The translations under genes were made by a program, and so were the position numbers. Positions 26,529-27,800 of a stretch of DNA of 33,074 bases are shown here, one piece after another. The stretch covers positions 1 through 33,074 of the forward strand of contig DEHG01000106.1 of NCBI GenBank assembly GCA_002351795.1, written 5' to 3'. This stretch comes from Ruminococcaceae bacterium UBA2806 (lineage in GTDB: Bacteria; Bacillota; Clostridia; Oscillospirales; Acutalibacteraceae). A model generated the notes under the pieces. That model saw only the letters and a program-made list of their open reading frames with translations. It made no database searches and was not told the DNA's origin. Position 1 is the first letter of the stretch; every line of letters starts with the position of its first letter.

Positions 26529-27800
26529 ATGGAACGTAATTATGCATTGGCTGTACAGAAAAGAGAAAACCTGTACAGAGCATATATAAATAAAGCCCAG
26601 ATAGTTTTACAGAGCAGCGGCGGCAAGCATACCTCAGAAGAATGTCAGTATTTGCAGAGAGCTGCCGAGCTGCAAAGTGAAATGGCAGATATGACTATCG
26701 GTGAGGAAAGAAATCACCATCTGAGAGAAAAGGAAGCTATCAGCGCAAAGGTTATTGCAATACTAAAGGAGATAGATCCTAAAAAGGCTGCTGAACTGGA
26801 AGGCGGCAAGGGCGAGGGCAAAAAGACCTCGCAGACAACAGGCGGCAGAGGCGGCGATAACGATAAGGAAAAGCTTGACGCTATGGCGCAGACATGGTAC
26901 AAGGAGGCACCGAATCATTCATTCAAGGATGTTTCCGGTATGGCTGAACTGAAGGATAAGCTCCAGGATTGTGTTACAAATTCAAACTGCGAGGAGCTGC
27001 TTGATTTCCTCAAGATACCGAGACTTAATACATATTTCTTTGTAGGCCCTCCCGGCTGCGGCAAAACCTATATCATTGAAGCATTTGCAAACGAGCTTGT
27101 AAATAATAAGGATAAGGAATATAAATATCTTTCACTTGTTGGTTCGGATATCATAAGCCGATATGTAGGCGATGCTGAAAAGATCGTTACAAGAATGTTT
27201 GAAGAGGCTGAAAACTGCGCCCCCTGTATCGTATTCATTGATGAGATCGACGGTGTATGCCGTAACCGTTCACAGAAGTCAATGCCTGAATATGCTGCGA
27301 GTATCACAACATCTTTCCTTACAGGATATAACAGGATGAAGAATTCAGGCAAATCCATTATTTTTATCGGCGCTACAAACTATCCTCAGCGTGTTGATTC
27401 GGCTATGCTGGACAGAGCAGAGGTCATTCGTGTTCCGCTGCCCGATAAGGATGCAAGGAGCAATGCTTTCCGTATGCAGTTTGAGGGGATCATTGAGCTG
27501 GATGACGATATATGCTATGACGATATGGCTGAGGTAACAGACGGCTATAACTACCGTGATATCGAGCGTGTTACATCAAATATGAAGAAGTCGATATTTG
27601 AACAGGTAATGCAGCAGGCAGGTAATCAGAAGGACGCTATAGAACTTATAAAGTTCGGCAAATTCAAGCTTAAAAAGAAGGATTTTGATGATGCTATGGC
27701 TGATTTCAAGCCCTCGTCAAAGAAGGATATTATTGACGCTATAGACAAGTGGGAAAGAAATCTTAATAATGACAGCTATCTTATAGATGATGAAGAATAA
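26529..27800 (+). CDS. Vps4-like AAA+ ATPase with a MIT-like three-helix N-terminus
   Basis: 423 aa. About 85-aa helical N-terminus and a G/K-rich linker. Walker A GPPGCGKT (27045-27068), pore loop RYVG, Walker B IVFIDEID (D at 27240), sensor-1 GATN. SRH VDSAMLDRAEVIRVPLPD lacks the PGRFD insertion, as in the Vps4/katanin/spastin clade. Confidence 0.8.
   Translation: MERNYALAVQKRENLYRAYINKAQIVLQSSGGKHTSEECQYLQRAAELQSEMADMTIGEERNHHLREKEAISAKVIAILKEIDPKKAAELEGGKGEGKKTSQTTGGRGGDNDKEKLDAMAQTWYKEAPNHSFKDVSGMAELKDKLQDCVTNSNCEELLDFLKIPRLNTYFFVGPPGCGKTYIIEAFANELVNNKDKEYKYLSLVGSDIISRYVGDAEKIVTRMFEEAENCAPCIVFIDEIDGVCRNRSQKSMPEYAASITTSFLTGYNRMKNSGKSIIFIGATNYPQRVDSAMLDRAEVIRVPLPDKDARSNAFRMQFEGIIELDDDICYDDMAEVTDGYNYRDIERVTSNMKKSIFEQVMQQAGNQKDAIELIKFGKFKLKKKDFDDAMADFKPSSKKDIIDAIDKWERNLNNDSYLIDDEE

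Follow-up and report, generated by a model that had tools for sequence, protein, structure and literature searches.

The window analysed here is the whole 33,074-nucleotide stretch of contig DEHG01000106.1 from Ruminococcaceae bacterium UBA2806. Its forward strand carries an eight-gene operon whose order is kept in about 78 species genomes of Clostridia, all of them metagenome-assembled: an uncharacterised protein, an Hsp70-like ATPase, a coiled coil, a zinc ribbon, a helical protein, a putatively Snf7-like protein, an ATPase and a catalytically dead AAA paralogue of the latter (Table 1). The reading frame of the ATPase, gene 7, was confirmed, and a Shine-Dalgarno-like AAAGGTGAG is located 8 nt 5' of its ATG. 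The genes around the operon are chromosomal housekeeping genes. A phage or plasmid origin was considered and rejected, with only generic AAA matches of up to 34% identity being returned. In one subclade, a gene for a BrxL-like Lon ATPase directly follows the ATPase gene. A scan of the operon for promoters and terminators was uninformative. We found no earlier description of the operon or of the ATPase in the literature.

Table 1. Genes of the operon and its surroundings, and features of the ATPase, in window coordinates
Feature	Length or residues	Position (strand)	Basis
Gene 1, A575	575 aa	17852..19579 (+)	74 loci, conserved order
Gene 2, Hsp70-like ATPase	558 aa	19583..21259 (+)	71 loci
Gene 3, long coiled-coil protein	669 aa	21259..23268 (+)	73 loci
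Gene 4, zinc-ribbon protein	161 aa	23268..23753 (+)	74 loci
DUF3592 membrane protein, lineage-specific insertion outside the conserved core	226 aa	23747..24427 (+)	Pfam E 9e-7
Gene 5, H394, helical, CHMP-like N-terminus MGLLFGKKKK	394 aa	24457..25641 (+)	77 loci
Gene 6, H268, putatively Snf7-like (ESCRT-III-like)	268 aa	25659..26465 (+)	Profile-profile comparison, motifs
Gene 7, Vps4-like ATPase	423 aa	26529..27800 (+)	ORF with ATG start
ATPase, predicted MIT-fold bundle	residues 1-83	26529..26777 (+)	AlphaFold2, Foldseek, conservation
ATPase, Gly/Lys/Ser-rich flexible linker	residues 84-114	26778..26870 (+)	Gappy alignment columns
ATPase, linker sequence EGGKGEGKKTSQTTGGRGGDNDKE	residues 91-114		
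ATPase, single classical AAA cassette	residues 115-423	26871..27800 (+)	PF00004, motifs
ATPase, Walker A GPPGCGKT	residues 173-180	27045-27068 (+)	
ATPase, pore loop 1 YVG	residues 212-214	27162-27170 (+)	
ATPase, Walker B DEID	residues 238-241	27240-27251 (+)	
ATPase, sensor-1 ATN	residues 282-284	27372-27380 (+)	
ATPase, short SRH VDSAMLDRAEVIRVPLPD with D295-R296	residues 289-306	27393-27446 (+)	
ATPase, C-terminal helix PSSKKDIIDAIDKWERNL with invariant W408		27711-27764 (+)	
Gene 8, AAA2, catalytically dead AAA paralogue	336 aa	27817..28827 (+)	Downstream in 76 loci
Lipoprotein-like gene outside the conserved operon	373 aa	28857..29978 (+)	No Pfam match

Pfam assigned one AAA domain to the ATPase (PF00004, residues 170-300, E 6.5e-31) and returned no second cassette. 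The Walker A, YVG, Walker B, ATN and SRH motifs, which a first-pass annotation had read from the sequence, were all found at the positions it implied, and the catalytic motifs are invariant in a family alignment of 38 relatives sharing 48-91% identity with the ATPase. The pore loop of the family has the form S[RK]YVG[DE]AEK. The SRH is short, lacks the Pro-Gly-Arg-Phe-Asp core and shows a three-residue gap with respect to the SRH of VAT. Its D295 and R296 are both invariant in the family, an Asp-Arg in place of the paired arginine fingers, the alignment to the Vps4 fingers being based on manually entered reference sequences and on the PDB search alignment. The retention of a single arginine at the finger position had thus been described correctly, and it is a trait of the whole family. 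The SRH had also been called meiotic-clade-like; this holds for its shortness, but the LDRAEVI core is equally like the single-arginine SRH of TRIP13 or Lon. The C-terminal helix is conserved as PxxKxDIxxxxxxWE and aligns where the CdvC and Cdc48 models end. Vps4_C is absent from the matches listed (the best 25 of 28 Pfam families, E up to 0.1), and a beta-domain is likewise absent among the Pfam matches listed.

The Gly/Lys-rich linker proposed earlier is present. Both its length and its sequence vary among the relatives, alignment columns 88-135 being gappy and unconserved, as would be expected of a flexible tether. For this stretch, the PDB held matches to linker/N-terminal-helix regions of yeast Vps4 only (E 0.04). 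The overall layout of N-domain, linker and single AAA cassette, likened at first sight to that of Vps4, spastin and katanin, is borne out.

Residues 1-92 were predicted by AlphaFold2 as a three-helix bundle (pLDDT 92.7, pTM 0.80) with helices at residues 2-29, 36-55 and 58-82, and the three N-terminal helices suggested from the sequence were thereby reproduced. Helix 2 is the most conserved part of the domain (L42, Q43, A45, A46, L48, E51, M52). In a Foldseek comparison of the model with 350,542 PDB chains, MIT domains made up 13 of the 20 top matches at probabilities up to 1.00, the leading ones being those of NRBF2, spastin, archaeal CdvC/Vps4, MITD1 and spartin. The best match by TM-score was the crenarchaeal CdvC MIT domain; archaeal CdvC (2w2u/2v6y) gave TM 0.67/0.82 at an rmsd of 2.3 Å, the value of 0.82 for CdvC 2w2u being normalised by target length. 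Foldseek E-values of this 92-residue model were between 0.17 and 1, and the structural support for MIT is for this reason one of ranking and probability. At the level of sequence, the N-terminus had no MIT match in Pfam, a profile of the N-terminal family found no MIT domain in the PDB, and comparison of that profile with Vps4 MIT sequences by hhalign scored under the decoys. Because these sequence searches found no MIT signal, it is the predicted fold from which the assignment derives. The claim of an MIT-like N-terminus thus stands as regards the fold and does not as regards the sequence, and we describe the region as a probable MIT-type fold.

Among single-domain proteins in the PDB, VPS4B was the best match of the ATPase (117 bits), in an alignment that starts at residue 47 and hence includes the linker; in that search, Cdc48/p97/VAT D2 reached a per-domain score of 97 bits. 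An HMM of the ATPase-core family scored VPS4A/B at 134 bits, p97-D2 at 127, katanin at 121, PAN at 97, FtsH at 91 and TRIP13 at 56. Among NCBIfam models, Cdc48 ranked first with 143 bits, its alignment extending through residues 124-412 and so taking in the C-terminal helix, and cell_div_CdvC yielded 117 bits against a cutoff of 650 bits, about half of the 243-244 bits reached by human VPS4B and spastin on the same model. The NCBIfam order CdvC > PAN > FtsH seen with the ATPase is also the order of VPS4B; spastin and katanin match it in part, and with PAN it is reversed.

Crude neighbour-joining trees placed the family on a long branch of its own outside the meiotic clade. It grouped with Vps4 in 0% and with the meiotic clade in 0-7% of bootstraps, and the meiotic clade together with ATAD1 was monophyletic without the family at 98%; a larger grouping holding both the family and the clade received 54-82% support. 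Its nearest neighbour was either TRIP13 or an ARC-like ATPase of archaea, each on a long branch, and one tree joined the family with TRIP13 at 72%. The archaeal neighbour, L082, was considered as a link to ESCRT and dropped: it adjoins Pup-ligase genes and is for this reason taken as ARC/Mpa-like. In these trees, whose reference set did not include SpoVK or CbbX, the family was apart from FtsH and from the p97 and VAT domains. The reference sequences for profiles and trees were entered by hand; those of Snf7 and PspA were confirmed by Pfam, and four AAA references gave the expected NCBIfam rankings.

The first-pass annotation had named an N-terminus that does not fold as an MIT-like bundle, together with clustering of the AAA domain with FtsH/SpoVK/CbxX-type families, as the outcome that would speak against a Vps4-like ATPase. 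There was no clustering with FtsH, and neither a SpoVK nor a CbbX model was found among the best 25 NCBIfam matches, so that this outcome did not arise. By profiles and crude trees, the ATPase is a divergent classical AAA protein with Vps4 as its best-scoring relative. It is not a Vps4 orthologue, and the low bootstrap values and the distance from the CdvC cutoff place it outside both the Vps4/CdvC family and the meiotic clade.

Wherever a clostridial locus extends upstream of the ATPase gene, the gene next to it is that of H268. From N- to C-terminus, the protein has a hydrophobic-Phe-basic motif, a core of helices, an acidic linker and, at its end, a MIM1-like helix, DDEFDDYLRDWGKV. Its family shares a CHMP-like N-terminus with an xxF-basic motif, and an acidic tail that ends in D[IL][DE]ELM[RK]xL-type helices. 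By hhalign, H268 and Snf7 were aligned colinearly from the N-terminus over ~160 columns (probability 73-75%, P 2.6e-5) with a score of 39.8, which none of 150 periodicity-preserving decoys reached, the best of them scoring 23.2. An independent profile built from 113 representatives scored 35.0, again reached by 0 of 150 decoys, the highest of which had 20.4; across both profiles the probability was 64-75% and P 3e-5 to 7e-5. The H268 profile matches Snf7, not PspA, and control families from the same operon, including the coiled-coil gene 3, gave background scores against Snf7.

Other searches with H268 were less productive. Snf7 and PspA_IM30 were absent among the Pfam families listed for 155 scanned members (50 + 105, E up to 1; in each case the 25 families matched by most members). 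Neither phmmer nor a profile search of the PDB with the helical neighbours returned Snf7 or PspA, Shrub (5j45) appearing only at E 8. AlphaFold2, working from a shallow alignment of 14-18 relatives, modelled H268 with long helices at 30-89 and 95-145 at a pLDDT of 54.6, and Foldseek found nothing at E <= 0.001 for this poor model, VIPP1 standing at ranks 5 and 8. The profile comparisons point, with moderate and not decisive strength, to H268 being a remote relative of Snf7.

Two ESCRT-III-like genes had been reported immediately upstream of the ATPase. Both helical genes do adjoin, and the Snf7 likeness of H268 lends weight to one of them, but H394 is not convincingly ESCRT-III-like. Its score against Snf7 was 29.3 with a decoy maximum of 26.4, and N-termini of the MGLFGKKK / MALFGKKK type recur in its family. 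The C-terminal ~270 aa of A575 are paralogous to H394 (hhalign 99.8%, E 5e-30); the N-terminal domain of A575 carries a conserved FH(L/F)VFAN motif, and Pfam returned no match for the protein. With a merged profile of H394 and the A575 C-terminus, the observed score against Snf7 was equalled or exceeded by 13 of 150 decoys. The idea of three ESCRT-III paralogues in the operon was dropped, since merging the two alignments weakened the Snf7 signal, and neither H394 nor the A575 C-terminus can reliably be called Snf7-like from these profiles.

The initial description of the gene context comprised neither the eight-gene operon nor the dead AAA paralogue nor the Hsp70-like ATPase. In the product of gene 2, the nucleotide-binding domain is of a divergent DnaK type and its phosphate-1 motif, GIDFGSTYT, is intact (Pfam HSP70, E 2.6e-8, residues 10-407; DnaK nucleotide-binding domain in the PDB, E 3.5e-7). 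Relatives of gene 3 range from 268 to 1066 aa and have only matches of the SMC/Rad50 coiled-coil type; a Snf7 signal was not found by profile comparison. The zinc-ribbon protein contains an N-terminal CxxC...CxxC, with C3, C6, C17 and C20 invariant, and a conserved C-terminal domain, its best PDB match being a RanBP2-type zinc finger (E 2.6e-7). AAA2 is related to the ATPase family at 100% hhalign probability (E 6.7e-42). It keeps the GxxGxGKxT motif as GRQGCGKRT (27985-28011), has lost Walker B, sensor-1 and the conserved arginine finger as judged from family conservation, is without an MIT domain and ends in an acidic tail, LLDDDDDPDALF. That AAA2 might donate the missing arginine finger was considered and rejected because its SRH region has no conserved arginine. 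The genes for the DUF3592 protein and the lipoprotein-like protein have a homologue in just 1 of 84 loci each.

Computation has shown the reading frame and the motifs in it, the MIT-type fold, the conservation of the operon, the profile match of H268 to Snf7, and that the protein is a classical AAA ATPase. With these results in view, we incline towards the ORF encoding the motor of an ESCRT-III/Vps4-type module, not described before, in Clostridia of the gut and rumen. Judged from sequence comparison and modelling, its most likely function would be that of an MIT-guided unfoldase remodelling ESCRT-III-like polymers. H268, and possibly two other helical proteins of the operon, would polymerise at the cytoplasmic face of the membrane, to which they may attach via the N-terminal hydrophobic-Phe-basic motif. 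The MIT domain would capture the short amphipathic helix in which the acidic C-terminal tails of the helical proteins end, and the ATPase, assembled into a ring, would then use the YVG loop to thread subunits through the pore, whereby the polymer would be remodelled or recycled. AAA2 may be a cofactor, either as partner in a mixed ring or as regulator. We infer roles for the other five proteins as well; the Hsp70-like, coiled-coil and zinc-ribbon proteins would act earlier, in nucleation, targeting or assembly control. More tentatively, we entertain the joint reading that the operon specifies a genuine ESCRT-type machine of gut and rumen Clostridia, independent of archaeal Cdv/ESCRT or split from it very early, and made up of Snf7-like subunits, an MIT-AAA motor with its dead paralogue, and Hsp70-like, coiled-coil and zinc-ribbon factors.

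Alternatively, the protein may be a generic classical AAA unfoldase or chaperone which, together with the Hsp70-like ATPase, serves a coiled-coil or cytoskeletal assembly that has nothing to do with ESCRT-III. On this reading, the three helices at the N-terminus would form a plain adaptor, and the resemblance to Snf7 a matter of helical composition. We consider this unlikely, yet it deserves to be taken seriously. The failure of Pfam and of profile searches against the PDB to find MIT or Snf7, and of hhalign to find MIT, is what it would predict, but it is MIT domains specifically that dominate the structural matches, although the PDB contains many further three-helix bundles. Similarly, the poor AlphaFold2 model of H268 and the decoys reaching the merged H394 profile would suit a chance resemblance, whereas the H268-Snf7 alignment is colinear, exceeds all 150 decoys in two profiles and has no counterpart in the true coiled coil of the operon; H268 has, moreover, CHMP-like N-termini and a terminal MIM-like helix. 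The first rank of Cdc48 among NCBIfam models (143 bits) and the tree position outside the meiotic clade are also in keeping with a generic unfoldase.

An anti-phage or conflict ATPase of the IetA/IteA or bacterial Trip13 type, remodelling or activating an effector upon infection, appears improbable. PADLOC models of IetA (80 bits) and TRIP13 (72 bits) and the NCBIfam model of IteA (71 bits) do match the ATPase, but all score below Cdc48, CdvC, PAN and FtsH, which argues for generic AAA similarity, and membership in a defence system was rejected on this ground. The tree joining the family with TRIP13 at 72% and the likeness of LDRAEVI to the VDRADI of TRIP13 stand against the 56 bits of TRIP13 and 134 bits of VPS4A by the family HMM, and against an N-domain that is MIT-like and unlike the beta-rich Trip13/NSF type. 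The BrxL-like gene of one subclade would suit a defence function; the core operon, however, is without a HORMA, cyclase, nuclease or protease partner, the neighbourhood consists of housekeeping genes and is no defence island, and PADLOC returned for the other operon proteins coiled-coil noise and one marginal Hsp70-like match (E 0.006). Least probable, and already disfavoured, is the horizontal transfer from archaea of a true Vps4/CdvC orthologue along with a CdvB/Snf7 gene: transfers of VPS4-like ATPases to some bacteria are on record in a comparative-genomics paper on the PSP system (PMC11237479), the domain architecture and gene adjacency are as in cdvB-cdvC, and crenarchaeal CdvC provides the best TM-score match of the N-domain, but the bootstrap support for joining the family with Vps4 is 0%, and that for a meiotic clade which is monophyletic and excludes it is 98%. 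The CdvC model gives 117 of 650 bits, roughly half the score of human VPS4B or spastin, and an Asp-Arg replaces the paired arginine fingers.

If the ATPase is indeed the motor of an ESCRT-III/Vps4-type module, the ESCRT logic of polymer plus unfoldase would exist, or would have evolved again, in Bacteria. Vps4 is regarded as an archaeal invention. According to one review, the ESCRT-III relatives PspA/Vipp1 are present in bacteria and a Vps4-like ATPase is absent (PMC7619361), and another states that other ESCRT components are not identifiable there (PMC10936438). The view that an ESCRT-III-coupled Vps4-like ATPase is absent from bacteria would then be overturned. The module would offer a simple Gram-positive system in which MIT-tail recognition and AAA threading on membrane filaments could be studied. 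In Lachnospiraceae and Oscillospiraceae, which abound in gut and rumen, it would also point to an unknown membrane process; repair, division, the release of vesicles and scission linked to sporulation are examples. To our knowledge, neither an Hsp70-like ATPase nor a dead AAA paralogue is among the partners in known ESCRT systems.

Several known systems invite comparison. The D2 domains of Cdc48/p97/VAT share with the ATPase the highest NCBIfam profile score, 143 bits, but the protein described here has a single cassette and is without the double-psi barrel N-domain, its SRH is without the RPGRFD core, and the two are separate in trees. TRIP13/Pch2 and the Trip13 of CBASS are likewise single-ring classical AAA remodellers with a D-R single-arginine SRH (VDRADI); they differ in that TRIP13 attains only 56 bits by the family HMM, in their NSF-N type rather than MIT-like N-domain, and in the HORMA partner, which the operon lacks.

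PspA and Vipp1 are, as proposed for H268, bacterial proteins of the ESCRT-III superfamily acting at the inner membrane face. In Chlamydomonas, an Hsp70 system, the chloroplast HSP70B-CDJ2-CGE1, both builds Vipp1 oligomers and takes them apart, and the operon too includes an Hsp70-like gene. On the other hand, H268 matches Snf7 and not PspA, and the operon is without the PspB, PspC and Toastrack partners. PspF, a sigma-54 activator of the AAA+ type, lacks an MIT domain and shares no homology with Vps4 (PMC7619361).

Closer in architecture are spastin and katanin p60, which share the MIT domain, linker, single AAA cassette and KYVGE-like pore loop, as well as a short SRH without the Pro-Gly insertion and a C-terminal helix with a conserved Trp. 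Their substrates are tubulin tails. The family stands outside their clade, which holds together at 98% without it, and it has a single arginine finger only.

The most extensive likeness is to Vps4 of eukaryotes and Asgard archaea and CdvC of TACK archaea, although the family stands outside that clade and far under the CdvC cutoff and is without Vps4_C or the beta-domain. An Asp-Arg replaces the Arg-Arg of Vps4 (...SAIRRRFE...), similarity to MIT sequences was not detected, the operon partners are a dead AAA, Hsp70-like, coiled-coil and zinc-ribbon proteins instead of CdvA or ESCRT-I/II, and the host is a bacterium. Shared with Vps4/CdvC, in turn, are the predicted MIT-fold bundle, the flexible linker, the one classical AAA cassette, the aromatic-hydrophobic-Gly pore loop and the C-terminal helix, together with the position of the ATPase gene right after a putatively Snf7-like gene whose product carries an acidic tail and a short amphipathic helix.

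The ATPase gene was found as predicted by the first-pass annotation, with every quoted motif in place, as an ORF whose start codon follows the Shine-Dalgarno-like AAAGGTGAG by 8 nt. Pfam returned one AAA domain for its product (PF00004, E 6.5e-31), and no MIT domain, Vps4_C or second cassette was among the Pfam matches listed. The family is large (>2,500 database proteins at E <= 1e-20, a count that includes generic AAA relatives), and its matches, from Lachnospiraceae and Oscillospiraceae metagenome-assembled genomes, are labelled just 'ATP-binding protein' or 'AAA family ATPase'. 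Among 38 aligned members with 48-91% identity to the window protein, none of the catalytic motifs varies; the linker differs in length and sequence.

Operon genes and neighbouring features in the window, and sequence features of the ATPase (loci: number carrying the gene; aa ranges: across loci)
Feature	Position	Loci
Gene 1, A575 (520-690 aa)	17852-19579 (+)	74
Gene 2, Hsp70-like ATPase		71
Gene 3, coiled-coil protein (268-1066 aa)		73
Gene 4, zinc-ribbon protein	23268-23753 (+)	74
Gene 5, H394, helical (360-500 aa)	24457-25641 (+)	77
Gene 6, H268, helical (185-320 aa)	25659-26465 (+)	80 (duplicated in some)
Gene 7, the ATPase (ATG start, 423 aa)	26529-27800 (+)	
Gene 8, AAA2, second AAA-like protein	27817-28827 (+)	76
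DUF3592 membrane protein	23747-24427 (+)	
Lipoprotein-like gene	28857-29978 (+)	
622-aa protein	15597-17465 (-)	
BspA-type LRR_5 protein	11421-13034 (+)	
ATPase modelled N-terminal helices	residues 2-29, 36-55, 58-82	
ATPase linker EGGKGEGKKTSQTTGGRGGDNDKE	residues 91-114	
ATPase Walker A GPPGCGKT	residues 173-180	
ATPase pore loop YVG	residues 212-214	
ATPase Walker B DEID	residues 238-241	
ATPase sensor-1 ATN	residues 282-284	
ATPase SRH VDSAMLDRAEVIRVPLPD	residues 289-306	

The chief addition to the earlier reading is an eight-gene operon whose genes, from 17852 to 28827, all run in the same direction and either overlap or lie no more than 64 nt apart. Its order was obtained by searching every ORF in 84 loci with iterated HMMs and is repeated on contigs with distant homologues. 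With one genome scanned per species, 80 loci were obtained, 78 of them in Clostridia (Lachnospiraceae, Oscillospiraceae and Acutalibacteraceae; metagenome-assembled genomes from gut and rumen). Phage and plasmid collections contained only generic AAA relatives, and the rest of the window is ordinary chromosome (TsaD, PolA, alanine racemase, PrmA, QueH, RlmA). The DUF3592 gene within the operon and the lipoprotein-like gene directly after it are not conserved; both are confined to the window and its closest relative and have the look of lineage-specific additions. The Hsp70-like ATPase has a DnaK-type nucleotide-binding domain (E 3.5e-7 against the PDB; Pfam HSP70). For the zinc-ribbon protein, with its N-terminal CxxC...CxxC, the best PDB match is a RanBP2-type zinc finger (E 2.6e-7), a short match of low specificity; NZF fingers that bind ubiquitin, as in ESCRT-II Vps36, belong to this class.

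The 622-aa protein, divergent to the operon, has no Pfam match, and the LRR_5 protein lies farther upstream; LRR_5, Sel1 or RCC1 repeat proteins are found upstream of the operon elsewhere too (L001, L003). In a variant subclade (L003, 10001-14836, and the similar loci L024, L028, L036 and L049-L054) the ATPase has an added C-terminal domain of ~130 aa, apparently beta-rich by sequence, and its gene is followed by an inserted one for a BrxL-like Lon-type ATPase (PF13337, E 7e-114); AAA2 in this subclade has a YetF/DUF421 domain fused to it.

A MIT-like three-helix N-terminus had been proposed, and the fold bears this out without a sequence-level signal. Residues 1-92 were modelled by AlphaFold2 from 26 family sequences (pLDDT 92.7, pTM 0.80). 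When the model was compared with 350,542 PDB chains by Foldseek, 13 of the top 20 matches were MIT domains, with that of NRBF2 at rank 1 (probability 1.00) and that of spastin at ranks 2, 3, 5, 6 and 9. The crenarchaeal CdvC/Vps4 MIT domains 2w2u and 2v6y were also matched (TM 0.67 by query and 0.82 by target, rmsd 2.3 Å, 76 columns), as were MITD1 and spartin, with LIP5 lower in the list. The E-values are modest (0.17-1), as one expects of so short a helical query (92 residues), and the support for MIT therefore lies in specific enrichment and high probabilities. No MIT signal was obtained by Pfam, by the family profile against the PDB or by hhalign of the N-domain against Vps4 MIT sequences; the N-terminal 149 residues alone matched only the linker and N-terminal-helix regions of yeast Vps4 (E 0.04, PDB). 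Helix 2, which in MIT domains lines the MIM1 groove, is the most conserved surface of the domain (L42, Q43, A45, A46, L48, E51, M52).

Cdc48/VAT/p97 headed the PDB ranking for the ATPase (86 + 96 bits) only because the bits of two domains add. The best single-domain match is human VPS4B (117 bits, colinear over residues 47 to 350), followed by yeast Vps4. The Vps4 alignments end at the start of the Vps4 beta-domain, and the family therefore has no beta-domain insertion. A family HMM covering residues 150-423 was scored against AAA reference sequences, four of which gave the expected rankings when rescanned against NCBIfam. The scores were 134 bits for VPS4A, 133.5 for VPS4B, 127 for p97-D2, 124 for yeast Vps4, 121 for katanin, 116.5 for p97-D1, 113 for spastin, 107 for ATAD1, 97 for PAN, 91 for FtsH, 90 for NSF-D1, 56 for TRIP13 and 22 for Lon. 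With the NCBIfam models the window protein scored far under all cutoffs (Cdc48 143 > CdvC 117 > PAN 102 > FtsH 95 bits). Like VPS4B (CdvC 243 > Cdc48 229 > PAN 208 > FtsH 176) it prefers CdvC over PAN and FtsH, although its scores are half as high. Katanin gave Cdc48 264 > PAN 224 > CdvC 212, and the PAN sequence scored lower with the CdvC model than with the PAN, FtsH-family and Cdc48 models.

Membership of the Vps4 family or of the meiotic clade was not sustained. In bootstrapped neighbour-joining trees with classical AAA references the ATPase family was monophyletic (100%) and fell within Vps4 in 0% and within the meiotic clade in 0-7% of replicates; the meiotic clade plus ATAD1 was monophyletic to its exclusion (98%). 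Its sister was an archaeal two-domain ATPase (87%) or, once added, TRIP13 (72%), both on long branches. A group holding the family and the meiotic clade, without p97, PAN and FtsH, received 54-82% support. We conclude that the family forms a divergent lineage of its own among classical AAA ATPases, allied to the Vps4/meiotic group and outside it.

The archaeal sister, from an uncultured archaeon (L082, 2911-8744), is a 746-aa protein in which a coiled-coil N-terminus precedes two AAA domains; Walker A of the second is degenerate (GEEGVGKR). It was rejected as ESCRT-related because two Pup-ligase homologues adjoin its gene; the locus has the appearance of an archaeal pupylation-type module of the ARC/Mpa-like kind.

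In PDB alignments the SRH of the ATPase lacks 3 residues relative to the classical RPGRFD type, and the first canonical arginine finger position is an invariant Asp. D295 and R296 are each invariant among the 38 aligned members, in agreement with the single Arg noted earlier at the arginine-finger position. The core LDRAEVIRV resembles VDRADIKQY of TRIP13 and LDRMEVIRL of Lon, and LDRAEVIR (residues 294-301) is nearer to the SRH of Lon (LLDRMEVIRL) and TRIP13 (FVDRADIKQ), each with a single arginine, than to the RR or RPGR types of classical AAA proteins. TRIP13 and Lon are active ATPases with a single arginine finger each, so the Asp-for-Arg replacement need not harm activity. The conserved C-terminal helix PxxKxDIxxxxxxWE, in which W408 is invariant, corresponds to the terminal helix found in katanin, spastin and Cdc48-D2.

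AAA2, encoded downstream, is a paralogue of the ATPase (100% probability and E 6.7e-42 by hhalign), predicted to be catalytically dead, and lacks a MIT domain. The GxxGxGKxT motif is kept, and none of Walker B, sensor-1 and the arginine is conserved. As a source of the missing arginine finger AAA2 was rejected, since no Arg is conserved in its SRH region. Hydrophobic residues occur in its acidic C-terminal tails (LLDDDDDPDALF, MMDLDLNDL, DMDDLPLDF), which might themselves be MIT ligands.

Sequence-to-profile methods found no likeness of the operon neighbours to Snf7 or PspA. Profile references were built from seven CHMP/Snf7 sequences and E. coli PspA, confirmed by Pfam as family members (PF03357 at 1e-16 to 1e-58; PF04012 at 9e-49). 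The H268 profile aligned with that of Snf7 at a probability of 73-75% (P 2.6e-5, score 39.8), colinearly from the N-terminus (7-187 to 1-171, ~160 columns); the best of 150 decoys, made by shuffling 11-column blocks with helical periodicity kept, reached 23.2. An independent profile of 113 representatives, from 115 clusters at E <= 0.001 among 1.84 billion proteins, scored 35.0 (P 6.8e-5; decoy maximum 20.4). The reversed Snf7 profile and PspA gave background-level scores, as did the operon's coiled-coil, zinc-ribbon and Hsp70-like families against Snf7. H268 proteins begin with a hydrophobic-Phe-basic motif (e.g. MFGIFKSK, MGLFSRAKK, MKKGPLFPKK) and have an acidic tail that finishes with a short amphipathic helix (e.g. 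MADIDELMRNL, INRYVEEMIRTL, EEFDDYLRDWGKV); the former is similar to the N-terminal membrane motif of ESCRT-III, the latter to MIM1. The AF2 model of H268 was poor (pLDDT 54.6; helices 30-89, 95-120, 124-145) and had no significant Foldseek match, VIPP1 appearing at ranks 5 and 8. Profile-profile comparison argues moderately for a link between H268 and Snf7.

H394 starts with MGLLFGKKKK and its relatives with MGLFGKKK, the pattern of CHMP3/CHMP6. Its paralogy to the C-terminal half of A575 is clear (hhalign 99.8%, E 5e-30); the N-terminal ~340 aa of A575 have a conserved motif, G(L/F)FH(L/F)VFAN.DD.YY, and no Pfam match. Against Snf7, H394 was marginal (29.3; decoy maximum 26.4) and A575 scored 34.3 (decoy maximum 23.7); with a merged profile the signal was lost, as 13 of the 150 decoys did at least as well. 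A Snf7-like nature of H394 and A575 is unproven. Of the two ESCRT-III-like upstream neighbours originally proposed, only H268 is well supported as such.

The best-supported reading of the operon, inferred at every step, is a Vps4-type division of labour. Snf7-like subunits would form a polymer at the membrane, their terminal helices would be bound by the MIT domain of the ATPase, and the YVG loop of the AAA ring would thread them, with AAA2 as a putative ring partner or regulator. The Hsp70-like ATPase may control polymer assembly, much as plastid Hsp70 reportedly controls that of Vipp1, and the zinc-ribbon and coiled-coil proteins may nucleate or target the polymer. Computationally, the architecture, the MIT fold and an ESCRT-III-like neighbour of the initial reading hold, but the family membership does not.

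Full-text literature searches found no description of the operon. A Vps4-like ATPase 'appears absent in bacteria' according to a 2025 review (PMC7619361), and ESCRT components are 'not in bacteria' in a 2024 survey of ESCRT diversity (PMC10936438). Comparative genomics of the PSP system reports that VPS4-like ATPases passed into bacteria only sporadically, with a TPR/6TM protein there in place of Snf7 (PMC11237479).
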